A stretch of 35,249 nt of DNA from an uncultured Anaerolineales bacterium (lineage in GTDB: Bacteria > Chloroflexota > Anaerolineae > B4-G1 > SLSP01): the NCBI GenBank assembly GCA_964468735.1, contig CAYXVS010000003.1, positions 1 through 35,249 of the forward strand, written 5' to 3'. Under the pieces are notes generated by a model. It was not told the DNA's origin. It worked only from the letters and a program-made list of their open reading frames with translations, and ran no database searches. The position numbers and the translations under genes were made by a program. Position 1 is the stretch's first letter. Each line of letters starts with the position of its first letter. This document shows, in pieces, positions 14,250 through 31,592 of the stretch.

Positions 14250-15202
14250 ACATCCTCCTGTTGCTCTCTGATAAGGGCCTGGGGGATGCCCACGAATCCC
14301 TCCGGCCGCCTGCGCGGACGAAAGACCACCCGCCCATCGGATCTCCGGGTAAAAGGTTGTTCCTCGCTCAAGCTAACCCCCTCGGCGGGCGACGCCTGCG
14401 ACGTCACTTGAAGCAAGAGGATATCCTCGGCCCGACTTTCGGGCAATAAATAGCCATCCGAGGGGATCTTAAGCGCGAGATAGTGCATCCCCGGATGGAG
14501 TTGCAAAAAAGAGAGCGGACCAATGTCTAAGGGGATCAACGTCGGCGGTAGATGGCGCCTGAGCACCTCGCCGGGCAGTGTGAGGTGAAAGGGGTAAATG
14601 GGATACGCGCCGGTCAGGACGACGACTTGGTTGATCAGTTCGTATAGCGGCGCGATGACGGTGAATTCATCCACGGGCAACTGCGATAACAGCGAGGTCA
14701 GGCTGGACATCCAACGCGCTACGGCCTGGCACGCCTGCACGCGGTCGGATCGATGTTGGAACCCCCAGAAGCGCTCGTTTTCCGCCAGGAGCGTGTGGGT
14801 CTGCGCGAAGGTCTGGCGCACTTTTTCTTCGAAGCGGAGGACGTAGTGGATGACGCCCTCGAAGTAGACGATCATCGCCTCGTTGTAGCGCGCGACCTGC
14901 GTCACCGAAAGCTCTATCGAATTCAAGGCCCAGCCGATCTGCTCGAGAGCCTCTTCCGGGCGCTGGAGACGCCACAGCACATCCGCCTGCAACGCCCGCG
15001 CCAGTGCGGCCGCCTCGCGCTGATGGGCCTGCCACGCGGTGGAGAAGATGCGCTCGGCGATAGCTAGCGCCTCCTCTAATCGCCCCTCTGCGACTGCGCG
15101 CCGCACATCTGTTTCCAGCGGATCGCGAAAATCCGCCGGGATGTCCTCCAGCGCCAACAGCGTCGATAACGTCAGCGCTTCAGGGAGACAGACAAAACGC
15201 AT
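14246..15202 (-). CDS. Hypothetical protein (318 aa): helical N-terminal half, beta-rich C-terminal half, no recognised catalytic motif
   Basis: This is a long ORF with coding-like composition. The start is moved to ATG 15202 (MRFVCLPEAL...) because the track's 11-codon extension is encoded by the family C repeat motif. The C-terminal segment HYLALKIPSDGYLLPESRAEDILLLQV...DGRVVFRP...GFVGIPQALI loosely resembles an S24/LexA-type beta-domain but lacks the Ser/Lys dyad. That resemblance is weak. Confidence 0.6.
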   Translation of the reverse strand: MRFVCLPEALTLSTLLALEDIPADFRDPLETDVRRAVAEGRLEEALAIAERIFSTAWQAHQREAAALARALQADVLWRLQRPEEALEQIGWALNSIELSVTQVARYNEAMIVYFEGVIHYVLRFEEKVRQTFAQTHTLLAENERFWGFQHRSDRVQACQAVARWMSSLTSLLSQLPVDEFTVIAPLYELINQVVVLTGAYPIYPFHLTLPGEVLRRHLPPTLIPLDIGPLSFLQLHPGMHYLALKIPSDGYLLPESRAEDILLLQVTSQASPAEGVSLSEEQPFTRRSDGRVVFRPRRRPEGFVGIPQALIREQQEDV

Positions 15203-15205
15203 AAG

Positions 15206-15420
15206 CCGTTCCAAGAAGATAAACCTCCCAAACACGACCTATTCTCTGGGGGTATCCATTTAGTTTCATGAGCAACCCAAGGTGCAACGCACTTGAACCA
15301 AAAGAAAAGTAACTCCTCATGCGTATATGCCTGGTGATAGGTCTAAAAGTGCGTTGCACCTCACAAGACTAAACGGTTGCCTCTGGGGAAAAGTATTGAG
15401 CTTGGGAGGTTTTAAATTTT
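15206..15420 (+). repeat. Composite nested palindromic element: family C outer arms enclosing family A copy 2
   Basis: The outer arms aaacctcccaa (15221..15231) and ttgggaggttt (15402..15412) are reverse complements. The inner family A core spans 15256..15381, with stem 15280..15294 pairing 15347..15361 (15/15) and a 52-nt loop. The orientation is antisense to both flanking minus-strand genes. Confidence 0.8.
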
Positions 15421-15436
15421 CAATCTCCATGACCTC

Positions 15437-16753
15437 TCAGGATGACGAGGGAAGCGCCCGTTGATCTTCAGACGCTTGCTCCTCAGAAGAAATTGGAGAA
15501 AGAACACTTACTCGCTCCTGCCCATATAAGTCGGTAATGATCTTTTTAAGGAAATTCGCCTGTTCAAACATCACACGGCGCACCGATGGATCCTGATCCG
15601 CCATCGATTGCAGCACGCTCAAAAATCGCAACAGGACCAATTGGGAAGTTTCCTCATCATCCTCTTGGTGTAGCTTTTGGATACCCGGCATCATCCCGGT
15701 GACCAATTCCACCTGCATCTGAACGCGGGCCTGATCAACCAGATGTTTCTGGACAACCTCACCTTCAGTAAGTTGCTGGGCCGCGAAATTCTGCCACTCG
15801 CTTTGCCAAGCTTCCAGCCATTGACGGGAAACAGCCTCTTCATCGGGCTGGATGGGCCCAAGTTGCACCTGCTCCACGATGATGCCCATCCCTTCGCCGC
15901 TCTTGCGCACAGCCTCAAAGATTTCCACCTCTAGTTGAGCAACAGGCGGCATAGCATCTTCGGACGAGGCTAAAAATTCATCCAAGTTGTATGTTTCCAA
16001 GCGATTGCGAATGGCGCTATCTAAGGAACCGCCGGAGATGCGGCCCGTCCAATCTTGAATCACCCCGCCGGCCTTACGACGCTTGATCGTCGCCGCTGTG
16101 ACGACCGCTTGCTCGTCAAAGGGATATGGCACATCTGAGGTTGGCTCTTGACCACCGTCATCGATACGAAAGCGGACACTGGCTTCACAGGAGATGGGGA
16201 TGCCATCGCGCGTCATCATCCCCACACTGACGGTTCGGCGCTGTGGACGCAGGTCGACCACATCCCACACCTTTTCAAAGGGGTCCAAGGTGTGAAAGCC
16301 CGGTCCCCAAACACGATACAGCTTCCCCAAGCGCGAGGTCACCACCGCCGAATCATGGCCCACGCTAAGGAAGCCGGGGCCACCGACTTTGCGCATCGTC
16401 GCCGGGCCATCGGGTGTAGCACGTCCCTTTTCCGCACGCCAGATGGGGTGAAGGGGTTTGCGCAAAGGAAGGCCAAACAGCACCAGGCGAACAAATTCCT
16501 CCGCATCCTTCTCCGACAGATCATAGAGTTGACGCAGGATTTGAATAAACAAGGTTCGCACATGCCAAACGCCAAACGCCAAGCTGGCCATAAAGCCCGC
16601 TATCGCTAACGGGAATTGCATCCGGCGCTCCAGAAGCATCTCCCGCAGCAAATGAGGCGCTACGACCAGAACCAGCGCCGCCATCACAATAGGAACGATG
16701 AGAATGATCAACCCAAAGAGAGAGAATGTCATGCGGCCTTTCTGCTCTGTCAT
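15437..16753 (-). CDS. SPFH/band-7 (stomatin-like) domain membrane protein, 2 N-terminal TM helices
   Basis: AVVTSRLGKLYRVWGPGFHTLDPFEKVWDVVDLRPQRRTVSVGMMTRDGIPISCEASVRFRIDD aligns well with the stomatin core (RLGR..GPG..PF.EK...VDLR.Q...V...T.D.VPV....V.FRV.D). The later segment is IRNRLETYNLDEFL...GIIVEQVQLGPIQP. AAGGAGG lies 7 nt upstream. The gene starts only 25 nt downstream of the preceding SPFH gene. Confidence 0.75.
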   Translation of the reverse strand: MTEQKGRMTFSLFGLIILIVPIVMAALVLVVAPHLLREMLLERRMQFPLAIAGFMASLAFGVWHVRTLFIQILRQLYDLSEKDAEEFVRLVLFGLPLRKPLHPIWRAEKGRATPDGPATMRKVGGPGFLSVGHDSAVVTSRLGKLYRVWGPGFHTLDPFEKVWDVVDLRPQRRTVSVGMMTRDGIPISCEASVRFRIDDGGQEPTSDVPYPFDEQAVVTAATIKRRKAGGVIQDWTGRISGGSLDSAIRNRLETYNLDEFLASSEDAMPPVAQLEVEIFEAVRKSGEGMGIIVEQVQLGPIQPDEEAVSRQWLEAWQSEWQNFAAQQLTEGEVVQKHLVDQARVQMQVELVTGMMPGIQKLHQEDDEETSQLVLLRFLSVLQSMADQDPSVRRVMFEQANFLKKIITDLYGQERVSVLSPISSEEQASEDQRALPSSS

Positions 16754-16778: not shown

Positions 16779-18275
16779 TCAACCTCGCTGCCATTTTACA
16801 ATTTGCCTATGCGCTTGTTCTATCGTCATCGTCACCGATTCCGGAAGCAACGCTTTGACATCCGGCGACCGCGCAATATGATCCAATGACTCGAGGAGCC
16901 GTACCGTCACCAAGGTACGAGCTTCTTTCGGGCTGAGGTCATTGAATTTCTTGGACTCTTCAAACAGGCCTTGCGTCAATTCCATCAGCATTTGCCCCCG
17001 CACACGTCCAAATTGTTTCTGGCGTTGAGCCAAGATTTTGCCGTTCTTTTTCATCATCTCACTGATCCACTGAGCCTTCCAGGCCTCGATGCGCTGCTTC
17101 ACAACGGTCTCATCCACCGGGATGATTTTGTTGCCCACGCCGCCGCCATCGATGCGGATGCCTTTCGGCTCGATCTCCTCTTTCACACGCTGCTTAACCT
17201 CCCCGCCAATCGCGCCGCGCGGCAATTGCTCGCCCATCGCGTACAGATCGTCCAAGCTATATCGCGCCACCACCTGTTTGACGTGATGCTTCGCGACGGT
17301 CAGCGGGAGATCTTCCCACGGCAGCGCCTGATGGGCGTCCAACGGGGTCTTGCCCTCCGGATTGACCTCAGCGGCGAAGACGGCCTTATAGGCCGCACTG
17401 CTTCGATAGGGCCACGTTTGCCCCAACTCCGGGACTCTCTCACCGGGATTAATGCGGAAAATCGAAGCGATCGGCAAGTTGACTTTGATGCCGTCGCGCG
17501 TCAGCGCCTCGACACGCTCCGCTCGGAGCTGCTGCCGGAGATCGACGACCGAATGCACTTGTTCCATTGCACTGGTCACGATGGTTCCTGGTCCAAAGAC
17601 GCCCCGGAACTTGGCGGAGTCCTTGATCGCTGCCGCGTTGTGGGGTTCTGTGATGACCAAGCCCGGCCCGCTGCCGTGAAATGGGTTCCCTTTGATCCGG
17701 GTCTTGGGTTCTCCATTAACGACGACAATCGAAGGCTTGGGGTAGGTCGTGAAAAATCCAGCGAAATATGCCAAGGCTTTCTTGCGATACCCTTCCATAT
17801 CCGGCGGGAAAGGGAATAATTCCGGCGCCCAGAAAAAGATCGCCAAGACCGTCAAAATGGGAGGGATGAGTAAGCTGGTGATAAAGAGTAAGATCAACAA
17901 CCAAGAGGCGTCGGAAAGTAAAAGTAAGGGCGCAAATAACAAGGATAAAAGTCCACAAGTGCCGACTAATCCCCACGCTACCCAGGCCGGGGTCACGCCT
18001 GTCCACCAGGCGAAGATCAGGAAGATGGTCAAAGGGAGACACGTAGAGACAACTAAGATGCCTACCCATCCTAAGATCGAAGGGCGAAGGATGCCGCCCC
18101 ACAAGATCCCCATCAGTGGCAGGAGCAATGGCCCACCCAGGTGCCACAGTAGCCAGAGGGCACGCGTCTCAGGTTGCACATACTCTTGGCTCACCTCCAG
18201 AGGATGTTTTTGTAGATATTCTTGTAGATAAAAGAATAACCCCAGGTAAATTAGCAAGATGATAAAATATAGCAT
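16779..18275 (-). CDS. SPFH/band-7-like domain membrane protein, polytopic N-terminus (about 5-6 TM helices); paralog of 15437..16753
   Basis: GPGLVITEPHNAAAIKDSAKFRGVFGPGTIVTSAMEQVHSVVDLRQQLRAERVEALTRDGIKVNLPIASIFRINPG parallels the SPFH core of the neighbouring gene. The later segment is VARYSLDDLYAM...GIRIDGGGVGNKIIPVDE...RIEAWKAQW. AAGGAGGA lies directly upstream of the ATG. Confidence 0.7.
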   Translation of the reverse strand: MLYFIILLIYLGLFFYLQEYLQKHPLEVSQEYVQPETRALWLLWHLGGPLLLPLMGILWGGILRPSILGWVGILVVSTCLPLTIFLIFAWWTGVTPAWVAWGLVGTCGLLSLLFAPLLLLSDASWLLILLFITSLLIPPILTVLAIFFWAPELFPFPPDMEGYRKKALAYFAGFFTTYPKPSIVVVNGEPKTRIKGNPFHGSGPGLVITEPHNAAAIKDSAKFRGVFGPGTIVTSAMEQVHSVVDLRQQLRAERVEALTRDGIKVNLPIASIFRINPGERVPELGQTWPYRSSAAYKAVFAAEVNPEGKTPLDAHQALPWEDLPLTVAKHHVKQVVARYSLDDLYAMGEQLPRGAIGGEVKQRVKEEIEPKGIRIDGGGVGNKIIPVDETVVKQRIEAWKAQWISEMMKKNGKILAQRQKQFGRVRGQMLMELTQGLFEESKKFNDLSPKEARTLVTVRLLESLDHIARSPDVKALLPESVTMTIEQAHRQIVKWQRG

Positions 18276-18354: not shown

Positions 18355-18489
18355 CCGTTCCAAGAAAATAAACCTCCCAAAAACGAGTGGTTTTCTGCCT
18401 GTGGCCCTCCTTGGCCCTAAGGCCCAATGGCCGAGGGAAGGCCCCATGGCCGTGGGAGGGAAAAGTATCAGGTTTGGGAGATTTTAAAT
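18355..18489. repeat. Family C palindromic element with a different GC-rich core
   Basis: The left arm is ccgttccaagaaaataaacctcccaaaaacga (18355..18385). The right arm is gggaaaagtatcaggtttgggagattttaaat (18458..18489). Both match the outer arms at 15206.. and 15386.., but the interior is an unrelated ggcc-rich segment. Confidence 0.7.
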
Positions 18490-18647: not shown

Positions 18648-21600
18648 TCAGTATTGCTTGAGAATCACGGGGAGATAGACCTCCGTGCCGCCGGGAAGTG
18701 CGTCGCGATCCACGGCTCGATTGTTTTCCTCGTTCCAGTCCTTGACAATCAACTCCGTGGTATAGCCAATGTCCACCCGATTGATGATCTCGCGGTGCGT
18801 CGACGGAATCGATTCCGCCAACTGGATGGCGAAGGTCACCCACCCGGATGCGCCGACATCCAGCGTGCCATCATTATCAGAAAGTCGGAAAACATACTGC
18901 CCATCCGCCACCCGGAGCCAGCGACCACTCATCCCTATGAGGGTCTGCGCGGAACCGCCATCGAAATTCACATATTCGCTGGGCGCGATGGTCTCCGTCA
19001 AGACAACATTGGAGACTGGCAACTCAGAGCTGGTGTGATTGGTGTAGGCGATGGTGTAAACCAATCGCTGCCCCGGCTCGACATCGGCGACGCCATCGTC
19101 TTTGCTCACCTGCACATCGATGCGAGGGGCCGGCGATTTGATGACGTCCACGCAGGCCATCTCCTGGCCTTGTGCGTCCGATGGCAATTGAATGGTGTTG
19201 CAATACTCGCCGGCTGCCAGGAAGGGATCGGTGGTCACGCGGAAGGTGACGGCGTACTCACCTGCGACGGGAAGGTCGATGCCGTCCCAGATGATGAGCT
19301 GGCGGTCGCCGGACTGCGTCACCTCCGCCGGCGCGATGCTGGCGCTCGCAAAGGTGAAGTCCGACGGAAGCGTGTCGGTGATCCGCACGCCGTTGATCGG
19401 GGCCGCGCTGTCGTTAAAGAGTCTGAGGGTGTAAGTAACGGCCCCCCCGGCCTCAACTTTCGTGGGTTTCACGTTCTTGCTCATTGAAAGGCCGCCACGC
19501 CGGACGCCGTCCACGTCACTATCGGCGTTGTTATCACGCTCGATCTCCAAGCTATCCGCGCCATCGTCCAATCTATAACCAATCTCAATGTGGTTCTCTA
19601 ACACCTCGATGTCGTCGGGGATGCTATCCGCCAGTGTAACCTGGAAGAATAACTCGCCTGACTGACCCGGTTGTAGCCCCGACGCAGGCTTCAATTCCAG
19701 CTTATAGACGCCGCCGCTGCCACTCCAATTACTGCTCTGGATCACGTCCGGCTGCATAAAGGTATCGGTGAGGATAATCGTATCGATGGGAGCATCTGAT
19801 TCGACCGCGTTGGTGTAGCGGATCGTGTAGTTCAAGGTGTCGCCGCCCGCGACCCAATCAACGCCATCGTTCTTGCTCACCTGCACATCCATCATAGGCA
19901 GCGCGGAGACATAGACGCGGCCTCCCAACGGCGTGACGGGAGATTGCAACTCGCCGTCCTGTTCGATTTGGACGGTGTTGGTGTAGTAGCCGGTCTGAGC
20001 GTAGCGATCGATGGTGGCGTTAAAGACCCATTCACGGGACTCCTCCGGCGCCATTGTAAATTCATTCGATGTAACCTGTTGTTGTCCCTCCGATGTGATG
20101 CCCGCCGGCAACGTGTCAATAACACGCACATCATGACTTTGATCGTTGCTGGTATTGTAGAGCGTGACGGTATAGATCAGGTCATCGCCGGCCTGGGGCC
20201 ATTGCGGAGAAGCGTCCTTCGTCACAAGCACTTTATCTCCTTCCCCAAGGATGATCGTCTCATCCACCGCCGAGTTATTTTCAACATTGGTCTCTCTCAC
20301 CCGCTCGGTTGTCGTGTAATCGATCTCCACGCGATTGAGTACGATAGTTTCCTCAGGGAGATCATCCGCAAGTCGCACCACGAAGGTCAGCTCGCCACTC
20401 GCCATCGCTGCTGGATCTTCAATGACATAGCGATACTGCCGGCCTCCAATCTGCGTCCAGTCCGAACTCAATACCTCCGCGACTTCCGGCGGCACCGTCT
20501 CCACCAGGGTCAAGGAGGAGAAGACCGGCTCATCAGATTCGGCTCTGTACTGGATAGTATAGGTGAGAATTTGCCCCGCCCCAACCCAGGTCATGTCATC
20601 GCTCTTGGTCACCTGCACATCCACGTTTGGCGGAGGTAAGACCTCTAAGCAGGCCAGGCCCTCGACCGGCGGTTGAACGATCGGCTCGCTGCCATCACGG
20701 GGATCGCGCAACACTTGGACAGCATTACACAGCGTGCCCGACTCGGCCCAAGGATCGACCCGCGCACGGAAGCGGAGTTGGGCTGAGTAATCCGCGAACA
20801 TGCGGTAAGACGACCACACCACCTTTTCATGCCCTGCCTCCGTCATTGTTATCGGACTAAGACCATACAAATCCTCGACGAAGGTGACGGAAATTGGCAA
20901 CGTGTCGGTGATCCAAAGATAGTACCCTTGAGCGTCATTGTTGATCAAAGTGACGGTATAGGTGACGAAATCACCGGGCCGCACGGCCATCGGCTCGACC
21001 TCCTTGCCGATCTGGATGCCGACCACGCCGCTGAGCACATCCGTATCAGGATCGTCGAAGTTGTTATTGTTCGAAAGGTCGACATCTATCGCCTCCTCAT
21101 CCGTGGTGAAGCCGACCTCAACGCGGTTGACAATCGCATCCACCGCCGGGATCGTCGGATGCACGCGCACCGGGAAGGCTACCGATCCGCCCTCGCCGGG
21201 TTCCAACACGCCCGTGATGACTTTCCGATATTTACCTTGCTCCAGCCGCTCCCATGTCAGATCGGGCGGGTCCAACTCATCCGGCCCGAGGACATAATTG
21301 CGCGGCTCGAAGGTATCGGTGATGATGATGCTTTCCACCTTGTAACCGGGCTTGTATTCTAATTGCTCCGGCTCAGCGTTCGTATAGGAAATGGTGTAGG
21401 TCAGCCATTGACCGGGCACCACCGTGGTGATGCCGTCCGTCTTGCCGATTTGCACGTCTAACTTTTGCAGGCCCTCGACCTGGACCTCGGCCAAGTTGGC
21501 GTGGTCGGGAAGCGCTCGTCCGGCCATATCCTCCACATAGACGCGATTGAACGCCGGACCGGTAGGGGCAATCTTCAAGACGCGCGCCTGGAATTGCAGC

Positions 21601-24600
21601 GTCCTCGTCACGCCCGGCTCCAGACGTATCGCCGACCAGACCACCTCTTCCTGCTCAAACGGCGGCGATCCATAGGTCCGAGTCGAGACATTTGTGGGAT
21701 CTATGGCGTTGGCGAAGACAAAGTCTGGCGGCAGCCGATCCACGACCTGCACGGTATAGGGATCTTGGATGTTGTCGGAGAGTCCTAAGCCAATGGTGTA
21801 GGTCACCAAGCGCCCGGCCTTGACGTTCGTCGGATCGGCCTGCTTGGTCACAGAGATAGGATCACGCCCCAACAGCAGATCAAAGTCCACGCTGACGTTG
21901 TTTTTAGGCGTCGCATCTGCCGTATTCGCATCCACCACGTAACCAATCTCAACCTGAGAGCGGATGCCAAGCTCCTCGTCTGGAACGTTATTGGCAACAC
22001 TGACAGTAAATGACATCACCCCCGTTTCGCCTGCCGTCATAGGCGATTCAATCGTGTGGACATACTGCCCGCTGCCCACCTCCTCCCAATCATCAGAGAT
22101 TAAATTAACCGATCCAGCCGGCTCGAGCGTTGTGGTCAAGATGACGGCCTGGAACGTGCTGGTATAGGTTTCATCCGAAGGAGCAGGGGAGCTGTTAGTA
22201 TAGTAGATCGTATAATCCAGCGTCTCACCTTCATTGACCCAGAAAGAGTCATCGCTATGACTGACTTCAGCATCCAAGCGCGGCAACTCAGTCACCCAGA
22301 CCCGCGCCAAGCCATCGCGCTCGGGCAGTCGCACATCGCCCATCTGTACTTGGACCGTGTTGGGGTAACTGCCCTCATAAGCCAGCCGATCCACCTGCAC
22401 AGGCAAGGGAACCTGTAGTTCTGCCCTCGGATCAATGGGCAATGCATCCCAAATCACCAACTGGTGACCATCTTGCCACTCCGTGTGCACGCCGCTCGGA
22501 TAGGGCGTCGCCAGGGTGAAGGAGACCGGGAGCGTATCCGTCACGATCAAGTCATAGGCATCGAAGGTCTGATTTTGGAACGTCAAGGTATAGGTCAACC
22601 GCTCGCCAGCGATCACGGTGTTTGGATCTGCGCTCTTCGAGACGTTGACGTTAGGTTTACCGAACACGTAGACCGGCGCCGTTGGGCCAGTATCGGAAAT
22701 ATCGACGGGGGTGCCGGTGCTGTCATTGAGCGCCTCGATCATCGCGTTGTTGTAATACTTGGCCGTGTAAAGATCTGCCCCCGTCTTCGCTGTGAAGACG
22801 AATTGCAGAGTATCACCACCATTTAGATTCCCAGAGACGCGCCACACCAGCATCTGAGGGTCGCTATCCGGTACAACCTCAGGCGGTTGCCCACTAACGA
22901 TTCCCTGGTACTCAAAGCCGCTGGGCAAGACATCTGTAATGACAATGTTGGATAATCGATAATCGGCGCCGTTGTACAAGTTGAGGGTATAGGTCACCAG
23001 ACTGTCGGTGTAAACCTCGCGCGGCGTCACATCCTTGTAGAATCCAATGCCGGAGACGACAAAGACCTCCACATTATCGGTATATTTTTCTGAAAGGCCC
23101 CAGTTGATCGGCGCTTCAGCATCGACCCAGTTGTGCTGTAATCCTAGCTGAGGCCCGGAACGCGCCTTAAAGCTGAGGTCCACGGATTCCTCCGGCCCAA
23201 TTTCATCCAAGGTCCACGAGGGCAGGAAGGTGTCCGGCTCCGGTGTGTCACCGACAACGTCGACGTAGCTCCATTTCTCCGGCAACACATCGGTGATGAC
23301 GACATTATGAACCACTGCGCCAGTTTGGTTTTCCACCTGGAGCACGTACAGCACCTCGTTGTAGGGAGCGACCTCCTCAACATCGGGTTCCTTCTGAATT
23401 TCTATCCCTTTGACCACCTCACCTTGATAGTGATAACGCACTCTTTGCGTTCCACCTCCTTCCCTGTCCACTTCATAGACGGCGGCGGGGATACAAATGG
23501 AGGGATCATCAACCGAGAGGGCTTGAACTTCACTGCGGAAGTTATCCTCTTCGTCTATCGCTTGCAACCTAGCTGTGATGATACGCTCTCCCCGAAGCGG
23601 AATCGTCAAATCATCCCAATAGACCACCCCCGGTTCGGCGTCACCGGGTGGCGTCGCGGTCGGCACGGAGGTCGAAAGGAGCGTGAAACGTTTGTCGCTT
23701 TTTTGGCCATAAGGAATCGTCCAGGCAAGCGTGATGCCGCTGACGGGCTGGATAGGCTCGGTCCGGTTATCACGCATCGTCAACGTCAAGACAACCTGCT
23801 CGTTGATCGCCACGGGATTAGGATAGAACTCCTGCAACAAGGAGACATGCGGATAGACATACACCCACGCCAATTCTGGCATATTCGTGCGCGTACCTTG
23901 ATCCTCCACAAAGAACTGAACGGTCCCCGGCCCTTGGAACGCCCCCTCTCCCTCTGGCCCCATGGCATTACACCAGTCTGTGTGCAGGCCGCTGCCCGTC
24001 GCCGAGACAGTGAAGGTGTGAGAAAAAGTATCCCCCGGATCGAGCGGCGTGGCAATCGGCCCGTGCTCATATAGATCATCACCATCCGCACGATCCGTCC
24101 ATTTTATATAGAAATTTTTAAACGGAAGGACGTCTTGATTCAGTGCATCTTCGTAACCCGTAACCGTGTAGACATCTTTAGACGAGACATTCCGAATCCT
24201 TGCCGTATAAGTGATCAGATCCCCCAGGACAACGGAGGTAGTCTCTGCGTACTTATTGATCCGGAAGGGGGTATCTGCCGTCACCCTCGCCCCCTTGAAG
24301 TCGCACATAATAGTCTCACCACTATACGCTGACATCTCATTCTGATACTTCTTCCCTGGGATACCGTTCACCTCGGCTTGGAAGGCAAAGGTGTAATATT
24401 CACCTGATGCCACGCCAGGTAAATTCCATACCACAATGCGGTCCGCACCTGGCAATGGGTCAAGCCCCGTAGTAGGCGTGACCATTTTGATAAAGGAGAA
24501 AAACCGTCCGGTCAATTTATCTAATGGCAAAGTATCTGTCAACACCAACGGGCCAGCGATATCTCTGGGGCCGATGTTCTCCACGCGAATTGTATAGGTC

Positions 24601-26156
24601 ACCGGCTCACCAATCATCTGGGTCTCCGGCTCAGCCTCTTTTGAGAGGAGAATCTCGGGCGCGATTTCCAAGATCGCCATTTCGTTATCATCGTGACCGG
24701 GATACACCTTGGGCAGCTCATCGGACAGAGCATCCAGCCCATTGGGATATTTAAGCCCTCGACACGTAGATGGCGTCACCGTCGGTGGGGTCGTCGCCGT
24801 CACTTGGAAGGTCATACTAATCAAACCATTCGCCGGCACCGACAGGTCCTCCCAAACAACGTAATTCCCCCCATTGAGATTCGGGTCTGGGCCAGCAAGC
24901 ATCCCAGAAAAGACAAAGGTCTTATAAAGGGTATCGGTAATCGTCAAGCTACTGTTTAGCTCTCGAGGAACGTAGGAGGGATTATGACGCGGATTGTAAA
25001 ACGTCAATGTGTATGTCACCGGCTGGCCGGGGTAAGCTGTGGTTTCCCCCTCTGGATCTGACGCGGTTGTGACGACCTTATCAAAAGGACTGAGAATTTT
25101 CAAGTCCGCATCCGATGTCGGATGTGCCATCACACGGTCATCCCACACGGTCACAAATTCCTCTCGATTCTCCAGGTCTATCCCACCTTCGTAAGCTGTA
25201 TCTTGTGGTAACCGCGCGGTGAAGGTCATATAAGCACCGGCCCCTGGCTGGAGCACATAGGTAGAGGGGAGTGTCCAGGTGATGTATCCACTGTCCACAT
25301 AGTTCACGGAGGAGACGTCGGAGGTCACGGTCAGTACTGATGTGCTCAATTCGTCGGGTAATTTTTCTACGACGTAAAGGTTCGAGGCCGGCCATGCATC
25401 TGGTCGCTCTTCCGTACTTAGATTTTTGACGTGAATTGTGTACGTCACCAAACGTCCAACGCGACACTCATCCCTCGGCGCTGGCACATCCTCGCCTTCA
25501 CCCCAATGCTCGATCTCCAGCAATGGGCCAACGACCATCGAACTGGCCAGGGGCGCCTGCGCGTCGCTGTAGCCCGCCAACTCCCCCACGACCGAATTCT
25601 CCACACTGGAGGGGCCTATTTCCTTTCCCCAAGGCTCATGCCCTTTCAGAGCAGGTTGCACCGTGATCGGCACCCGCGCGAGCAATTCGATTTCCACCAC
25701 CTCGCCTGGATCCATATCACTCAACCACCATGTCGCCTCGCCCCGGTGATTTTCGGTGTTAATGGTGTGCGTGAAATCCTCTACCGCACTGGGGGGATTG
25801 ACGATATAGCTATCATATTTCAACAAGATGCCATGCTCCCACCAGTTATCGGCATTGGGCATCTTCGTCGTCCACGAGTCATCCAATGTCACGCCACTTA
25901 GCGTGTCCTCCGTTGAAGTATTCGTCACCACGATGGTGAAGGTGACAATCTCGCCGGCAAAGGCCACATCCGGCGAGGTCTGCCCCACCTCCAGCGGGGT
26001 GGCCGCCGGCGCCGCGACCTCCCGGGGCAAGATAGCACCTTGCACCGGCCCCGTCAGCGCCGTCATCAGACCCCACAATCCAATCATCGCGCCCAGAACA
26101 GCCAATCCGATGCCATACGTCCTGCGCCTCATCTTCTTGCTCTCCCTAGTCTCCAT
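18648..26156 (-). CDS. Giant secreted/cell-surface protein (2502 aa) built of DUF11 (TIGR01451-type conserved repeat) and CARDB-like beta-sandwich repeats
   Basis: The signal-peptide-like N-terminus is KKMRRRTYGIGLAVLGAMIGLWGLMTALTGPVQGA. There are more than 15 occurrences of the DUF11 signature G-x-x-(V/L)-T-Y-T-(I/L)-x-(V/L)-x-N, for example GEIVTFTIVVTNTS, GRLVTYTIHVKNLS, GEPVTYTIRVENIG and GERLTYTLTFQNQT. The start is set at ATG 26156 (METRESKK...), which has GAAGGAGA 7 nt upstream. The 25-codon track extension is encoded by repeat family A. Confidence 0.85.
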   Translation of the reverse strand: METRESKKMRRRTYGIGLAVLGAMIGLWGLMTALTGPVQGAILPREVAAPAATPLEVGQTSPDVAFAGEIVTFTIVVTNTSTEDTLSGVTLDDSWTTKMPNADNWWEHGILLKYDSYIVNPPSAVEDFTHTINTENHRGEATWWLSDMDPGEVVEIELLARVPITVQPALKGHEPWGKEIGPSSVENSVVGELAGYSDAQAPLASSMVVGPLLEIEHWGEGEDVPAPRDECRVGRLVTYTIHVKNLSTEERPDAWPASNLYVVEKLPDELSTSVLTVTSDVSSVNYVDSGYITWTLPSTYVLQPGAGAYMTFTARLPQDTAYEGGIDLENREEFVTVWDDRVMAHPTSDADLKILSPFDKVVTTASDPEGETTAYPGQPVTYTLTFYNPRHNPSYVPRELNSSLTITDTLYKTFVFSGMLAGPDPNLNGGNYVVWEDLSVPANGLISMTFQVTATTPPTVTPSTCRGLKYPNGLDALSDELPKVYPGHDDNEMAILEIAPEILLSKEAEPETQMIGEPVTYTIRVENIGPRDIAGPLVLTDTLPLDKLTGRFFSFIKMVTPTTGLDPLPGADRIVVWNLPGVASGEYYTFAFQAEVNGIPGKKYQNEMSAYSGETIMCDFKGARVTADTPFRINKYAETTSVVLGDLITYTARIRNVSSKDVYTVTGYEDALNQDVLPFKNFYIKWTDRADGDDLYEHGPIATPLDPGDTFSHTFTVSATGSGLHTDWCNAMGPEGEGAFQGPGTVQFFVEDQGTRTNMPELAWVYVYPHVSLLQEFYPNPVAINEQVVLTLTMRDNRTEPIQPVSGITLAWTIPYGQKSDKRFTLLSTSVPTATPPGDAEPGVVYWDDLTIPLRGERIITARLQAIDEEDNFRSEVQALSVDDPSICIPAAVYEVDREGGGTQRVRYHYQGEVVKGIEIQKEPDVEEVAPYNEVLYVLQVENQTGAVVHNVVITDVLPEKWSYVDVVGDTPEPDTFLPSWTLDEIGPEESVDLSFKARSGPQLGLQHNWVDAEAPINWGLSEKYTDNVEVFVVSGIGFYKDVTPREVYTDSLVTYTLNLYNGADYRLSNIVITDVLPSGFEYQGIVSGQPPEVVPDSDPQMLVWRVSGNLNGGDTLQFVFTAKTGADLYTAKYYNNAMIEALNDSTGTPVDISDTGPTAPVYVFGKPNVNVSKSADPNTVIAGERLTYTLTFQNQTFDAYDLIVTDTLPVSFTLATPYPSGVHTEWQDGHQLVIWDALPIDPRAELQVPLPVQVDRLAYEGSYPNTVQVQMGDVRLPERDGLARVWVTELPRLDAEVSHSDDSFWVNEGETLDYTIYYTNSSPAPSDETYTSTFQAVILTTTLEPAGSVNLISDDWEEVGSGQYVHTIESPMTAGETGVMSFTVSVANNVPDEELGIRSQVEIGYVVDANTADATPKNNVSVDFDLLLGRDPISVTKQADPTNVKAGRLVTYTIGLGLSDNIQDPYTVQVVDRLPPDFVFANAIDPTNVSTRTYGSPPFEQEEVVWSAIRLEPGVTRTLQFQARVLKIAPTGPAFNRVYVEDMAGRALPDHANLAEVQVEGLQKLDVQIGKTDGITTVVPGQWLTYTISYTNAEPEQLEYKPGYKVESIIITDTFEPRNYVLGPDELDPPDLTWERLEQGKYRKVITGVLEPGEGGSVAFPVRVHPTIPAVDAIVNRVEVGFTTDEEAIDVDLSNNNNFDDPDTDVLSGVVGIQIGKEVEPMAVRPGDFVTYTVTLINNDAQGYYLWITDTLPISVTFVEDLYGLSPITMTEAGHEKVVWSSYRMFADYSAQLRFRARVDPWAESGTLCNAVQVLRDPRDGSEPIVQPPVEGLACLEVLPPPNVDVQVTKSDDMTWVGAGQILTYTIQYRAESDEPVFSSLTLVETVPPEVAEVLSSDWTQIGGRQYRYVIEDPAAMASGELTFVVRLADDLPEETIVLNRVEIDYTTTERVRETNVENNSAVDETIILGEGDKVLVTKDASPQWPQAGDDLIYTVTLYNTSNDQSHDVRVIDTLPAGITSEGQQQVTSNEFTMAPEESREWVFNATIDRYAQTGYYTNTVQIEQDGELQSPVTPLGGRVYVSALPMMDVQVSKNDGVDWVAGGDTLNYTIRYTNAVESDAPIDTIILTDTFMQPDVIQSSNWSGSGGVYKLELKPASGLQPGQSGELFFQVTLADSIPDDIEVLENHIEIGYRLDDGADSLEIERDNNADSDVDGVRRGGLSMSKNVKPTKVEAGGAVTYTLRLFNDSAAPINGVRITDTLPSDFTFASASIAPAEVTQSGDRQLIIWDGIDLPVAGEYAVTFRVTTDPFLAAGEYCNTIQLPSDAQGQEMACVDVIKSPAPRIDVQVSKDDGVADVEPGQRLVYTIAYTNHTSSELPVSNVVLTETIAPSEYVNFDGGSAQTLIGMSGRWLRVADGQYVFRLSDNDGTLDVGASGWVTFAIQLAESIPSTHREIINRVDIGYTTELIVKDWNEENNRAVDRDALPGGTEVYLPVILKQY

Positions 26157-26201
26157 TGCTCGTCTCCTTCTGTTTATGACTGTATGTGAGATAAATTTCC
26201 A

Positions 26202-26325
26202 GTAACCATTTAGTCTTGAGGTGCAACGCACTTTTGGGTTTATGACCAGATATTACTGCATGAGGCGTTGCTTTTCCTTCGGTTTAAGTGCGTTGCACCT
26301 TTGTCTGCTCATAGAACTAAAACAG
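26202..26325 (-). repeat. Long-hairpin palindromic element, family A copy 3 (15-bp perfect stem, 52-nt loop)
   Basis: The stem 26219..26233 (aggtgcaacgcactt) pairs with 26286..26300 (aagtgcgttgcacct). The flanks match the reverse complement of copy 2. It lies between the two giant genes, sense to them, in the 5' leader of the 2502-aa gene. Confidence 0.8.
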
Positions 26326-26342
26326 ATACCATTTCCAAACCA

Positions 26343-29300
26343 TCAGCTTTGCCGCACTATGACCGGTAAATAGATCATCCTCTCCGTCTGGCCCTCGATC
26401 AAAATCGGCGTCGTCGTCACGTTATTATCCTCGATGGCCTCTCGAATTAATCCGAAAGGCTTGCCCCATGGGGGTTGACCATATTCAGAGGTATCCACCT
26501 GGGCGTAGATGGCGTATTCGCCCTCAACAGGCGCCGACGCAGATTCACACGAGACGACCACCGACTCTCCTGCCGCCACCGGAGGCGCCAAGACATTACA
26601 ATACTCCTCCTCGTGATCAAACACGCTGCTGGGCGGCGTGGGCATCGCCGTTGACGCAAATGACTTGAGATAGACGCGCACCTCAAACAGATCCGTGTCC
26701 GTCTGACCCGTCCACAATTGGTCGGCGTCCAAATCCCCCTGATTCGCCACGGTCACATAGACGCGGGGCGGATCATCCTCCAGTAGATGGGTAGGCGTCA
26801 CTGCCATTTGGGTGATCACCAAATCCGGCCCGTGGACAGGATCACTATCCGTCGCCCGGTTGTTCTGGGGATTCGATTCCACCACATCCTCATCCGTCCG
26901 GTAGCCGATCTCCACGGTATTGCTGAGGACAAAGACCTCGTCATCGGGAATCGCGGTCGTCAGCGCGGCGCTCACACTCAACTCACCGCTCTCCATGGGA
27001 TCCAACGTGCCGACAGCGTAGGTGTAGCGACCGCCGCCTATCGGCGTCCACCCGGCGGCGTCCACCTCCACGGCGGAGGCCGGCGCTATCGTGTCGGTGA
27101 GCACCACATCCCGCAGCGTGATGCCATCGTCGGTGTCATTGGTGTAGCGCACGGTATAGATCACCTCCTGACCCGGCGTGATCCACGTTTCCCCGTCGTC
27201 CTTGGTCACCTGCGCATCGACGCGCGGCAATCCTGTCACGGAGACGGGCGCCAAGTTCGGATGATCGAAGTAAAAGCCGCCCACCAGCGTCTCCAGGCGA
27301 TTGTAATGCTTGCCGCTTGGCGTCATGCGCTCCGAGTGGACGCGGAAGGCCATCGTGATGGTCTCCTGCGGCTCGATATGGAGGCTTGGCCACACCAAGC
27401 GCGTCGGATGCCCAGAGAGCACATTGGGCGTCGCACCTGCCACGTGCGCATCGTAGGTGAAGTAATGGGGCAATGTGTCGGTGAGGGCGATGGTCTGCGC
27501 CGTATCCATCTCATTGAAGAGCGAGAGGGTATACGTGACCCTCTCCCCCGCTGTGATGCGCGACGGATGAGCGGTCTTTCTCACCATAACGGTGGGAATG
27601 CCCGCCACGTACACCGGCGCAGCATTCGCTATATCAGAGATGTCAACCAATTCTCCTGTATCTTGATCCTCGGCATAGACGGAGACGTGCGGGTTGTAAT
27701 AATCGCCGGACACCAACTCTTCACCCGTCCGCACACGGAACACAATCTGCAACCGATCATTTTTCTCCAATGGATCAGCAACCAGCCACTTGACCTGCTG
27801 CCCCTGCACCGCGATCTCCGGTGGGCCTTCAACAGTCTCCAAGAAGGTGAAGCCGCCGGGCAATGTCTCGGTTAACAAGATATTTGAAAGGATCTTATCG
27901 TTCGTGCCATTGAAGAGATTGATAGTATAAGTTACAACCTCGCCAGCCTTCACCTCCTCCGGTGAGACATCTTTAAAGAAGCCCACGCCGGGCGCTACGA
28001 AGACGCCGACGGTCTCGGTGTATTTCTTGTCCACCATCCAATGAATGGGGGCGGTGCATTCAACACCATTCCGCCACGTGCCAAGATCCGTATAGGCACG
28101 CGCCCGAAAGACGATCTCGACGATCGTCTCGGGCGGCAGTTCATCCCAAACCCACTGCAGAGGATCCTCACTGTAAGGCTCTGGCCCTGAGACCCAGTCC
28201 AGATATAGCCAATTGTCCGGCAGGATATCGATGACGACCACATCACGGACGGTTGCGCCGGTGGTGTTTTCAACCTCCATCAGGTATTCCACTTCGCCGT
28301 ACGGGCCAATTCTTTCGACATCCGGCTCCTTGTTGATCAACACGCCGGGCACTACATCCAGGGTCTTGCCATCGACTTTCTCCGCTGACGGCACGCAGAT
28401 AGCCGGATCATCGATCTCGGTGACGCGGGTCTTACTCTTGTAGCTCTGCTTGCGATCATCATCGGAGGCGAGCAGCGGCGCGCGCAACGTGAGCACCAAC
28501 TCCGTCGTCCCGCCGGCCGGCAACGTCAAATCGCTCCAATAATAAAGGTCGGAATCCTGAGACGAGGTCGGCAGCGAGGAAGCGACCAGCGTGAAGTCAC
28601 CTGGATTGGCGTTCGGCAATTCCCACTCCAACGTCATCCCCGTGATATCCGTCGTGGGCGCTGTGCGATTATCCTGTAGCGTAATCGTCAGCGTCACCAA
28701 CTCTCCCACCGCTACGGGATTGGGCGTCGCCGATTGGAGAATCGAGACGTGCGGGATGACGACAACGCTCGAATCTCGCAACTTATCCGCGTTTGTCCGC
28801 CACATCTCAGGCTCGCGCACATCGAAGAGAACGGTCGCCATGTCCTGCATCAAATCCTTCCCCTTGCCGCGATCCTCACACCAATCCGAGCCAAGCCCCG
28901 TGTCCTCCGGCAGACCGGTCGTGCGCACCTCAAACGTGTGATCCCAGGTCTCCCCCGGCGGCAACGACGCGGGCGGCGAGACGGTGTAGTTGTACTCATA
29001 ATCATCATCCGCCGGATCTGAGAAGAGAACGGAGGACAGATCATCGCGGAAGGCGGTCACGGTGTAAAGCGTCCGCGGCGAGATATTGAGGATATGAGCC
29101 TCGTATGATAGCAGTTCACCCTGGACAACCTCGCTTTGGAGTGCGGTCTTATTGATGCGAAACGGCGTATCGACCTCTACCCTCGTCTTATTGTCGTCAA
29201 TGATGGGGCAGATTCCCGTCTCCGCATTGTACGCCAACACATCATTGTAATATTTCACGTGAGCCACCCCGTCAACGACGGCCTGGAAGATCAATATATG

Positions 29301-31079
29301 CGACGCCCCCACATCCAGGCCGGGGAGGTTATCCCAGACGACGACGGCGCCATCGGAAAGCACCTGGGTCGGTAAGAAGGGGGCCGCCGTAGGCGCAACC
29401 ATCTCCTGGAAGGAGAAATAACGCCCGAACATCTCATCCATCGGCAAGACGTCCGTCAACACAATCGGGTCGGGGATGTATCGCTCTCCGACATTCTCCA
29501 AAGTGATGGTATAGGTCACCACCTCACCGGGAAGCTGCAAACTCGGCTCCACCCGTTTAGTAAGATCGATCTCCTTCTCGACGTCCAGCACCGCCATTTC
29601 ATTGTCATCGTGACCGATATAGGTGCCAAACCCAGGGATCACGGCCGTCGCCGTGACGCTGTTGGGGTAGGAATTAACGCAACCCGTCCACCCGGCGGAG
29701 GGCAAGGCCTGCGAAGGCACATCGACGCGATAGGACATCGTGATGGCTCCATTCGCTGCGACCTCCATATTGTCCCAGCGCAGATAAGAGCCTTCGATGA
29801 CATCCGGCGTCGAGCCAAGGAGCATCTCGGAGAACATGAACGTATTGTGAAGCCCATCTACCAATCGTAAGGCGTCGGCAAGAACGATATCGTGGTCGTG
29901 CAGCGGATTATAAAATGTGAGCGTATAGGTCACAGGACGGTTAGCATAGGTCGTCGCTGGCTGGTCAAGCGGGGGGCCGGTGGTGACGATCTTATCAAAG
30001 GGGCTGAGGATCCGCGTTCGTAACCTATCATTAGCGTTAGCCGGTCGCATCGGCATCCCGTCGGCCCAGGCCAACAACGACTCTTTGTCGTTCTCAAGAT
30101 ATTGCTTTCTTGGATTATAGTCTGTATCAGGTGGCACACGCGCGATGAACGTAACGGTGGTCGTCGCGCCCGGCGCCAAGTCGTTGGGCAACGTCCACGA
30201 GAGCACGCCCAGCGCGGGATCATACGCCGTGATCACCCCCGTCTGATCGGCCGTCACCTCGATCACCCTATCTTGAATTTGCTCCGGCAACGTCTCCTGC
30301 ACCACGAGATTACTGGCCCGGAAGACATCCGGGCGCTCCTCGCCATCCTCCTCCGTGACATTCTGAATCCGCACGGTGTAGGTCACCAGCCGCCCCACGC
30401 GGCAATGATCCTCCGGGGCGACCTCACCCTCCGCCATCTTGTCGATGCTCAACAATGGCCCAATCACCATCGCGCTGACGACCGGGGCCTCGACGTTCTC
30501 CTCGCCCGGAGCGGAGGCCACCACCGAGTTGGCGATGTTGCTGGGGCCGATGTCGTCCCACGGCTCGTGGGCTTTCAACGCCGGCTGCAACGTGATCGGC
30601 GCCGTGACGGAGAAGACAATCTCCACACTTTCTCCGGCGGCTAATGGATAAAGCGACCACGTCGCCTCGCCTCGGCGATCCAGCAACTCGATGGTCTGCG
30701 TGAACGCCTCGATGGCATTCGCGGGCGTCGCGACATAGCCGTTGAAATTCGCCAAAATACCGCGATCCCACCATTTATCTTTATTGGGATCAGCCTGTGG
30801 CGCGTTCGTCGTCCACGTATCGAACAACTCAATGCCGTTCACGGTTTCACCTGACGTGTTAGTCAACGCGATGGTGTAGGTCAGCACCTCACCTGCGAAC
30901 GCTGACGCCGTTCCCTTCTGTGACACCACGAATGAAGCTTGAGGCGCATTCGGCGCCGCCGCACTCTGCGTGGGCGAGATCAACGCCAATAACAACCCAC
31001 CTAACAACCCTGTGCCCCCGATGATCACCAGGGAGAGCACCACACGTCTAACCCAAATCGATTGACCTTCTGTAGTCAT
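26343..31079 (-). CDS. Giant secreted/cell-surface protein (1578 aa), DUF11-repeat protein with a C-terminal CARDB-like domain; paralog of 18648..26156
   Basis: The signal-peptide-like N-terminus is VRRVVLSLVIIGGTGLLGGLLLALISPTQSAAAP. DUF11 signatures include GEVLTYTIALTNTS, GRLVTYTVRIQNVT, NRPVTYTLTFYNPL, GEVVTYTITLENVG and GERVTYTLSLFNEM. The CARDB-like end is GPDLVITQMAVTP...RVYVTVANQGDLDA...IEDNN. AAAGGAG lies 8 nt upstream of the ATG. Confidence 0.85.
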   Translation of the reverse strand: MTTEGQSIWVRRVVLSLVIIGGTGLLGGLLLALISPTQSAAAPNAPQASFVVSQKGTASAFAGEVLTYTIALTNTSGETVNGIELFDTWTTNAPQADPNKDKWWDRGILANFNGYVATPANAIEAFTQTIELLDRRGEATWSLYPLAAGESVEIVFSVTAPITLQPALKAHEPWDDIGPSNIANSVVASAPGEENVEAPVVSAMVIGPLLSIDKMAEGEVAPEDHCRVGRLVTYTVRIQNVTEEDGEERPDVFRASNLVVQETLPEQIQDRVIEVTADQTGVITAYDPALGVLSWTLPNDLAPGATTTVTFIARVPPDTDYNPRKQYLENDKESLLAWADGMPMRPANANDRLRTRILSPFDKIVTTGPPLDQPATTYANRPVTYTLTFYNPLHDHDIVLADALRLVDGLHNTFMFSEMLLGSTPDVIEGSYLRWDNMEVAANGAITMSYRVDVPSQALPSAGWTGCVNSYPNSVTATAVIPGFGTYIGHDDNEMAVLDVEKEIDLTKRVEPSLQLPGEVVTYTITLENVGERYIPDPIVLTDVLPMDEMFGRYFSFQEMVAPTAAPFLPTQVLSDGAVVVWDNLPGLDVGASHILIFQAVVDGVAHVKYYNDVLAYNAETGICPIIDDNKTRVEVDTPFRINKTALQSEVVQGELLSYEAHILNISPRTLYTVTAFRDDLSSVLFSDPADDDYEYNYTVSPPASLPPGETWDHTFEVRTTGLPEDTGLGSDWCEDRGKGKDLMQDMATVLFDVREPEMWRTNADKLRDSSVVVIPHVSILQSATPNPVAVGELVTLTITLQDNRTAPTTDITGMTLEWELPNANPGDFTLVASSLPTSSQDSDLYYWSDLTLPAGGTTELVLTLRAPLLASDDDRKQSYKSKTRVTEIDDPAICVPSAEKVDGKTLDVVPGVLINKEPDVERIGPYGEVEYLMEVENTTGATVRDVVVIDILPDNWLYLDWVSGPEPYSEDPLQWVWDELPPETIVEIVFRARAYTDLGTWRNGVECTAPIHWMVDKKYTETVGVFVAPGVGFFKDVSPEEVKAGEVVTYTINLFNGTNDKILSNILLTETLPGGFTFLETVEGPPEIAVQGQQVKWLVADPLEKNDRLQIVFRVRTGEELVSGDYYNPHVSVYAEDQDTGELVDISDIANAAPVYVAGIPTVMVRKTAHPSRITAGERVTYTLSLFNEMDTAQTIALTDTLPHYFTYDAHVAGATPNVLSGHPTRLVWPSLHIEPQETITMAFRVHSERMTPSGKHYNRLETLVGGFYFDHPNLAPVSVTGLPRVDAQVTKDDGETWITPGQEVIYTVRYTNDTDDGITLRDVVLTDTIAPASAVEVDAAGWTPIGGGRYTYAVGTLDPMESGELSVSAALTTAIPDDEVFVLSNTVEIGYRTDEDVVESNPQNNRATDSDPVHGPDLVITQMAVTPTHLLEDDPPRVYVTVANQGDLDADQLWTGQTDTDLFEVRVYLKSFASTAMPTPPSSVFDHEEEYCNVLAPPVAAGESVVVSCESASAPVEGEYAIYAQVDTSEYGQPPWGKPFGLIREAIEDNNVTTTPILIEGQTERMIYLPVIVRQS

Positions 31080-31268: not shown

Positions 31269-31296
31269 ATTATAGACCTACCCAAAACCCTGTCAA
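31269..31296 (-). promoter_or_regulatory. Consensus sigma70-type promoter for the giant-gene pair (TTGACA - 16 nt - TATAAT)
   Basis: On the minus strand, TTGACA is at 31296..31291, the spacer is 16 nt, and TATAAT is at 31274..31269. This implies a leader of about 180 nt before ATG 31079. Confidence 0.6.
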
Positions 31297-31563: not shown

Positions 31564-31592
31564 TTGACAAATTATCCATCCTATGGCATAAT
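31564..31592 (+). promoter_or_regulatory. Sigma70-type promoter for the S1-domain gene (TTGACA - 17 nt - CATAAT)
   Basis: TTGACA is at 31564..31569, the spacer is 17 nt, and CATAAT is at 31587..31592. It is divergent from the giant-gene promoter and implies a leader of about 280 nt. Confidence 0.55.

Follow-up and report, generated by a model that had tools for sequence, protein, structure and literature searches.

Tandem giant genes of an Anaerolineales bacterium, predicted to encode envelope-attached CLIPPER-domain stalks of two lengths

A stretch of 35,249 nucleotides (nt) from an uncultured Anaerolineales bacterium (Chloroflexota; GenBank assembly GCA_964468735.1, contig CAYXVS010000003.1, positions 1 to 35,249), hereafter the window, carries two giant paralogous genes in tandem on the minus strand. 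The upstream gene encodes the short paralog S (26343..31079, 1578 amino acids (aa)), and the downstream gene encodes the long paralog L (18648..26231, 2527 aa from a GTG codon or 2502 aa from an ATG codon). These genes form an old tandem pair, and their products are probably exported stalks of two lengths, built from isopeptide-stapled CLIPPER (DUF11) domains and attached to the cell envelope through a C-terminal YLP-box. S would be a chain of about 10 Ig-like CLIPPER domains plus one CARDB domain, and L would contain about 19 CLIPPER domains. Isopeptide bonds formed by a Lys-Asp/Glu-Asn triad, as in the structure 9IFR, may produce stiff, covalently stapled stalks that resist heat and protease. 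A two-domain unit, Y followed by X, lies near the C-terminus. Its copy number (one in S, five in L, and 1 to 5 in the family) would set the fibre length, which can be estimated at ~40 nm for S and ~70 nm for L from the spacing of ~3.7 nm per domain in the filament protein GhlA. The YLP-box most likely sorts the proteins to the cell envelope or attaches them there; the variable Y-X array would then act as a spacer near the wall, with the conserved 1290-residue core held at two heights. A first-pass annotation, made from the sequence alone, had already proposed a surface fibre. This proposal agrees with the DUF11/CLIPPER stalk family, the N-terminal signal-like segment, and the C-terminal putative sorting motif described below.

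The gene pair and its Y-X array

BLASTP aligned S and L in a single collinear match (952 bits, E = 0, 41% identity over 1496 columns), and local alignment gave 44.7% identity over 1367 aligned residues. The first-pass annotation had reported the coordinates of both open reading frames exactly. It had also described a collinear core with nine shared landmark motifs, and all nine were found once each in S and in L, in identical order. In S, the landmarks are carried by a core of eight divergent CLIPPER-like domains, D1-D8 (residues 46-1160, 27600..30944, minus strand, as are all features of the pair). The collinear core of L covers residues 67-1191 (22659..26033). Three start codons are candidates for L: GTG at 26231, ATG at 26156 (M26), and ATG at 26132 (M34). 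In the L orthologs the N-terminus is MRRRTYG or lies slightly upstream of it, and one of the two ATG codons is therefore the likely start. GTG numbering is used for L throughout. In this numbering, the first X module of L begins (LPRLDAEV) at residue 1316, which is residue 1291 when counted from the ATG at 26156; the X module of S begins (LPRVDAQV) at residue 1284. The starts counted by hand in the first-pass annotation, 1291 and 1284, are thus right if L begins at this ATG.

The two genes are strongly diverged at the nucleotide level, as had been judged by eye. Their nucleotide identity is 54.2%, and only 38.6% at third codon positions; the identity is uniform along the genes, and the longest identical run is 13 nt. 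Searches of the array with Tandem Repeats Finder and a repeat finder for DNA-level tandem or dispersed repeats returned only matches of 20-50 nt at conserved motifs. Because the third positions are near saturation and DNA-level repeats are lacking, the gene duplication must be old, and so must the repeats that make up the array. A recent duplication or slippage in the array was ruled out, since the DNA repeats are no longer than motif-level matches. Recent gene conversion between S and L was ruled out by the uniform identity and the saturated third positions. The old duplication proposed earlier is further supported by the presence of S-then-L tandems in other Anaerolineae contigs, in which the short proteins are only ~37% identical to S.

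Beyond the core, L contains the array X1-Y1-X2-Y2-X3-Y3-X4-Y4-X5 (residues 1316-2527, 1212 aa, nt 18651..22286). BLAST of the whole C-terminal array against itself returned either no match or the identity match alone, and single modules were used as queries instead. With X1, the modules X2-X5 were recovered at E 1.5e-14 to 3.8e-20 (30-35% identity), as was the X module of S at E 2e-22; the Y modules were matched only at E >= 0.07. Y1 recovered Y0, Y2, Y3, and Y4 in the gaps between the X modules. The extent of the array and its periodic X-Y repeat are thus as first described. Identities among the X modules are 32-42%, and those among the Y modules are 26-39%; the orthologous pair Y-1 of L and Y-1 of S shares 47%. 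The closest partner of the X module of S is X5 of L, not X1.

The modules of L are given here with their candidate triads. Y0 (1192-1315, 22287..22658) has the triad K1199-D1232-N1291. It is followed by X1 (1316-1455, 21867..22286), in which the triad is lost (H1325-T1367-S1425), and by Y1 (1456-1587, 21471..21866; K1463-D1498-N1562). Next come X2 (1588-1735, 21027..21470; K1597-D1639-N1702), Y2 (1736-1867, 20631..21026; K1743-D1776-N1836), X3 (1868-1997, 20241..20630; K1876-E1911-N1966), and Y3 (1998-2110, 19902..20240; K2005-D2039-N2085). The array closes with X4 (2111-2243, 19503..19901; K2120-D2156-N2213), which is the modelled module, Y4 (2244-2367, 19131..19502; K2252-D2286-N2345), and X5 (2368-2514, 18690..19130; K2377-E2413-N2484). 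A tail of 13 residues remains after X5. In S, the core is followed by Y0 (1161-1283, 27231..27599; K1168-D1201-N1260), a single X (1284-1417, 26829..27230; K1293-D1329-N1387), and a CARDB-like domain (~1418-1545, 26445..26828). The last was matched by PF07705 at residues 1418-1531 with 30 bits (cut-off 22.7), in agreement with the layout first proposed for S; L has no CARDB domain.

The sequence patterns that had been proposed to delimit the X modules hold in part. The start pattern, in its strict form with the K, occurs only in X4, X5, and the X of S, whereas X1 has H at this position, X2 has LQKLD, and X3 has PNVD. A motif at the position of the proposed end motif VEIGY is present in all five X modules of L. 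It reads VEIGY, IEIGY, or VDIGY in X1, X4, and X5, but VEVGF in X2 and VEIDY in X3.

CLIPPER domains and the isopeptide triad

CLIPPER is the new name for DUF11, and the structure 9IFR has been solved for this domain class (Costa, Barringer et al., bioRxiv 10.1101/2025.04.25.650565). The structure contains an intramolecular isopeptide bond between Lys715 and Asn806, presumably catalysed by a nearby Asp. The bond shifts the melting point from ~45 to ~80 degrees C and protects against proteinase K; some DUF11 domains are without an isopeptide bond (10.1101/2025.04.25.650565). PF01345 (DUF11) matched L with 314 bits in 10 stretches and S with 158 bits in 5 stretches (cut-off 24.6), and the NCBIfam model TIGR01451 matched them with 228 and 108 bits, respectively. 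PF01345 is already labelled 'CLIPPER' in the Pfam annotation of related loci. A piecewise Pfam scan of the eight CLIPPER-like domains of the core placed three above the cut-off and gave three weak matches; two had no match.

The first-pass annotation had set the X modules apart from the Y modules, which were described as canonical DUF11 domains. Two subtypes do exist, but X is not a separate fold. When the X modules were searched alone against PF01345, the X of S (29.0 bits) and X5 (26.8 bits) passed the 24.6-bit cut-off. X2 (20.2 bits), X3 (22.7 bits), and X4 (16.6 bits) remained below it, with nearly the full model length covered. X1 alone gave nothing with PF01345 at E <= 1, and only DUF7927 at 16.4 bits. 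Because most X modules match PF01345 over nearly its full length, X is classified from sequence and model as a divergent DUF11 (CLIPPER) domain, a second subtype beside Y.

Profile and structure comparisons led to the same template. A profile built from 40 X modules matched chain 9ifr_A in the PDB with E = 2.6e-4; single-sequence phmmer searches against the PDB were marginal (E 0.16). In the profile alignment, the K of 'VSK' falls on the bond-forming Lys, the D/E of 'LTDT/LTET' on the Asp of LNDTL, and the N of 'N.VEIGY' on Asn806. The catalytic Asp is cited here by its LNDTL motif; the chain count is one residue off the published Asp-748. The K and D of Y4 also align to the Lys and Asp of 9IFR. 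X4, the only module modelled as a single domain, gave an AlphaFold2 model, built with the profile alignment, that had a predicted local distance difference test (pLDDT) score of 97.7. In a Foldseek search of the PDB with this model, 9IFR was the top match (E 3.8e-7, template modelling (TM) score 0.62/0.67, root-mean-square deviation 5.1). The AlphaFold2 model of S residues 1161-1578 had a pLDDT of 84, with Y0 and X above 90 and the last 20 residues disordered. Foldseek with this three-domain model found only generic multi-Ig proteins (integrin legs, mastigonemes) at TM ~0.2 and was uninformative.

S and L resemble the 9IFR protein (Acinetobacter silvestris B9T28_05395) in their Pfam family, the predicted CnaA-like β-sandwich, and the aligned Lys, Asp/Glu, and Asn. 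In both cases the domains are arranged in tandem within a very long protein, which is exported or, for S and L, predicted to be. However, the modules of S and L are only 18% identical to 9IFR, they belong to two alternating subtypes, and X has an additional C-terminal segment (E..NN.x.D.D). The 9IFR host is a host-associated Gram-negative bacterium, whereas S and L come from a metagenome-assembled genome (MAG) of the Chloroflexota. Also unlike the CLIPPER fibrillar adhesins, S and L lack both a recognisable adhesive head and an anchor of the OmpA-like or LPXTG type. With TIGR04226 (RrgB_K2N_iso_D2), the model of an isopeptide-forming fimbrial D2 domain, L reached 69 bits only as a sum (cut-off 30), with no single stretch passing, and S stayed below the cut-off at 29.8 bits. 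These scores reflect a shared K...N first-strand motif and are not taken as membership.

Of the 11 C-terminal modules of L, 10 have the Lys-Asp/Glu-Asn triad; in S, the three corresponding modules (Y-1, Y0, and X) all have it. Among 61 relatives, the sample that was also used for the copy-number and YLP-box counts below, the triad was found in 113 of 128 X modules and 172 of 212 Y modules. Six modules of this sample have no acidic residue, and all six have also lost the Lys and the Asn. These triple losses represent two separate events, namely H-T/A-S in the L clade, where the L orthologs P0002 and P0003 share the loss seen in X1, and S-V-Y in P0021, P0023, and P0025. Both affect the first X of a long protein, at the junction between core and array. 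The joint loss of all three residues suggests that the triad works as one unit, and this gives indirect support for bonds in the other modules. The triad-bearing modules of S and L are accordingly predicted, from these residues, to form isopeptide bonds. A different pattern was observed in the X module of the short members P0045-P0050, where Val replaces the triad Lys and the Asp and Asn are kept; here the presumed bond seems to have been lost more recently, through a change of one residue.

Copy number of the Y-X unit in the family

Every relative stems from a MAG of the Chloroflexota, with Anaerolineae, Anaerolineales, or Thermoflexales as its annotation; the one nearest to S (89%) is from a 'GSL.Bin35' MAG. 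The number of X modules per member is 1, 2, 3, 4, or 5, nearly always in Y-X units, with a few Y-Y-X arrangements; the modular length expansion postulated from the two paralogs is thus seen across the family. The most common form has one X and a CARDB domain and is ~1550-1600 aa in length. Some of the long forms end with a CARDB domain, and others do not. In a further sample of 59 distant DUF11 giants (P0062-P0120), a rough 20-bit classification placed the X-like and Y-like subtypes mostly in homotypic runs, so that the strict Y-X alternation marks the family of S and L. The S-then-L tandem itself was found in at least three other places: the loci L002/L018 (1606 + 2312 aa) and L013 (1608 + 2296 aa), and the contig of P0003 and P0027.

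In a bootstrapped neighbour-joining tree of the cores, the S clade was the partner of the L clade at 96%; the other long clade never was. P0012, with three X modules, was sister to P0031, with one. The core tree therefore suggests that the repeat number changed several times independently. Another history is conceivable, in which the long architecture arose only once, anciently, and the similarity between the cores of L and S results from past gene conversion within the tandem. A tree of the modules points in this direction. The first X modules of the long proteins from both superclades cluster together, and the terminal X of the long proteins groups with the single X of the short ones. However, the module tree has only 133 columns, was built without support values, and is readily distorted by long-branch artefacts. 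Both the 96% bootstrap of the core tree and the sister relationship of P0012 and P0031 speak for independent expansions, and the uniform identity between L and S, with its longest identical run of 13 nt, contains no high-identity tract that a conversion might have left. A single ancient origin is thus regarded as possible but doubtful.

A comparable design occurs in the wall-anchored adhesins of Gram-positive bacteria, such as SasG and Aap with their G5-E repeats and the Rib-domain proteins. Variable stalk repeats lie near a C-terminal sorting signal in these proteins, sometimes as an alternating two-domain unit. The repeats act as a spacer, and their number sets the projection of the N-terminal region. 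They are often nearly identical in DNA and vary between strains. S and L differ from these adhesins in their domain families, in units that are only 26-42% identical and vary between species, and in the lack of LPXTG and sortase.

Termini, neighbouring genes, and alternative readings

Both proteins begin with a basic stretch, a hydrophobic segment of 20-22 residues, and a small-residue site (QSA/A in S and VQG/A in L). In the translation of S, residues 1-45 (30945..31079) contain a basic n-region and a 22-residue hydrophobic stretch, followed by TQSA/AAP. This segment may serve either as a signal peptide or as a signal anchor. At the other end, the proteins close with a YLP-box, IYLPVIVRQS in S (26346..26375; disordered in the AlphaFold2 model) and, as read from the sequence, VYLPVILKQY in L (18651..18680). 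The consensus of the two ends is [VI]YLPVI[VL][RK]Qx. This resembles the YLP-box models of NCBIfam, for which [VIL]YLP[LV][VIL][LVM][RK] at the extreme C-terminus is typical and 'YLP-box putative sorting motif' is the curated model name. The tail of S scored 12.5 bits with NF053834 (ultrashort_CTERM, cut-off 10) and 13.1 bits with NF050076 (sort_motif_YLP, cut-off 15). The tail of L, searched as a 35-residue peptide, gave no match to a hidden Markov model, and its fit to the YLP motif was judged by eye only.

The YLP-box is found in 60 of the 61 family members, and the family alignment shows no variation at its Y, L, and P. It is also present in 16 of the 59 distant DUF11 giants, among which other members have classical C-terminal anchors consisting of a transmembrane segment and basic residues. 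In addition, three unrelated secreted-type proteins in related loci carry it (L005 5965-9963, L005 22141-23718, and L034 19165-20658): a reprolysin-like (M12) peptidase, a BNR protein, and a DUF4962/Ig protein. A classical sortase substrate, with LPXTG, a transmembrane helix, and a basic tail, was rejected; S and L end 7-8 residues past YLP and have no hydrophobic helix. Most likely, the YLP-box directs S and L to the cell envelope or attaches them to it.

The nearest described counterpart is GhlA of Litorilinea aerophila (Chloroflexota, Caldilineae), a 'grappling-hook-like' DUF11 filament protein of 6596 residues. It has 49 DUF11 domains and is 180 nm long (~3.7 nm per domain). It forms polar filaments, which appear three-stranded and carry a hook, and has an N-terminal transmembrane segment and no signal peptide (bioRxiv 10.1101/2025.08.19.671072). 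Compared with this description of GhlA, S and L share the phylum, the giant bead-on-a-string DUF11 chain, and the N-terminal hydrophobic segment. GhlA forms surface filaments, as is predicted for S and L, but is about three to four times longer. Neither a tandem of a short and a long gene nor strictly alternating Y and X modules are described for GhlA.

Several points weigh against exported stalks held to the envelope by the YLP-box. No relevant publication, mechanism, or cognate enzyme was found in the literature for the YLP-box, and the motif is only putative. Pfam and NCBIfam searches of the whole proteins found no adhesive, catalytic, or ligand-binding head domain, but DUF11-type and CARDB domains only; since no adhesive domain was recognised, S and L are classed as fibrillar stalk proteins and not as adhesins. 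Family-conserved K/D/N candidates are present in most core domains, but D1, D5, and D6 have no conserved triad. The array is not a relaxed spacer. Ortholog identity is uniform along S and L, and in the array (65-86%) it is not below that of the core (63-80%). All relatives are from MAGs. Finally, the long N-terminal hydrophobic segment may be an anchor that is not cleaved off; the proteins would then be oriented the other way round.

In such a reversed arrangement, the N-terminus would be held in the membrane, as has been proposed for GhlA, the fibre would extend outward, and the Y-X array and C-terminus would lie at the distal tip, with CARDB at the end of S and X5 at the end of L. The YLP-box would be a tip element, for example a strand docking into a partner subunit or a substrate, and not a wall-sorting signal. 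The hydrophobic stretch is indeed long for a Sec signal peptide, the description of GhlA includes a transmembrane segment near its N-terminus, and the YLP tail, which is disordered in the monomer model, does not have the length to cross a membrane. However, the hydrophobic stretch is followed in both proteins by sites that resemble those of signal peptidase. That unrelated secreted-type enzymes bear the same tail is easier to reconcile with a general sorting tag than with a tip element peculiar to fibres, and in the distant DUF11 giants the tail takes the place of the classical C-terminal anchors. The reversed orientation is thus rather unlikely, and attachment through the C-terminus is preferred.

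A perfect match to the sigma-70 consensus (TTGACA-16-TATAAT, 12/12; 31269..31296, minus strand) is located ~190 nt upstream of the S start, and no terminator-like site was found in the short gap of 111 nt between S and L (26232-26342). This sequence is a candidate shared promoter, and the pair is probably co-transcribed. A separate 11/12 match on the plus strand (31564-31592) faces a divergent S1-domain gene.

S and L might also work together, bundled through their 1290-residue cores into one multi-stranded filament in which L extends past S. A tandem arrangement with probable co-transcription, the retention of both genes together in several lineages, cores that are collinear domain for domain, and the apparently trimeric state of GhlA are compatible with such co-assembly. 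On the other hand, the cores are only ~45% identical, and many related genomes have the short gene alone or a lone long gene, from which it follows that each gene works alone. Co-assembly is therefore considered improbable.

Directly downstream of L are two SPFH/Band-7 genes identified by Pfam (16779-18275 and 15437-16753, minus strand); beyond them lie a hypothetical gene of 329 aa (14246-15235) and a gene for a PfkB kinase (13314-14249). The same set of genes comes after the fibre gene, or pair of genes, in L002/L018, L012, L013, and L017 and adjoins it in L006 and L023; it is absent around the distant members L001, L003, L004, and L005. A fixed functional link between SPFH proteins and fibres was not accepted, because the synteny is limited to the closer relatives; only conserved synteny is concluded. 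A more elaborate combination, in which S and L form one machine (a stepped filament joined through the cores, or a two-tier coat) with an enzyme-processed YLP-box covalently linked to the envelope, the twice independently unlocked X1 at the junction of core and extension as a deliberately extensible 'fuse' domain, and the SPFH pair organising the membrane site of assembly, is given little credence.

Other features of the window were recorded separately. A 19-nt tandem repeat of 2.1 copies, AAGGCCCAATGGCCGAGGG, lies between L and the first SPFH gene (18419-18457). On the plus strand, 6522-9119 encodes a membrane protein of large size in which the chlor_Arch_YYY domain of Chloroflexi and Archaea was recognised (TIGR03662, 513 bits; DUF2298 in Pfam). 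It is followed by a weak Agl23-like protein (9268-11004, plus strand; TIGR03663, 67 bits, below the cut-off). Both genes are possible envelope glycosylation genes. In a distant family member from a Thermoflexales relative, a run of glycosyltransferase and PMT_2-type genes (L003 1-9806) precedes the single fibre gene, and this hints that the fibres or the nearby envelope may be glycosylated. Scans of the window for Rfam families and tRNA genes found nothing.

In summary, S and L are a new example of a recently characterised domain class and of a known design principle, and no current concept is changed by them. The Chloroflexota envelope is unusual and poorly understood, and its surface appendages are only now being described. 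The family provides a natural length series, with 1 to 5 Y-X units on a constant scaffold and with two lengths side by side in some genomes, which may allow the importance of fibre length in filamentous Anaerolineae to be examined. It also places predicted isopeptide domains outside the usual Gram-positive phyla, together with natural triad-null variants that may serve as controls. Furthermore, these proteins would be suitable substrates for finding the function of the YLP-box.

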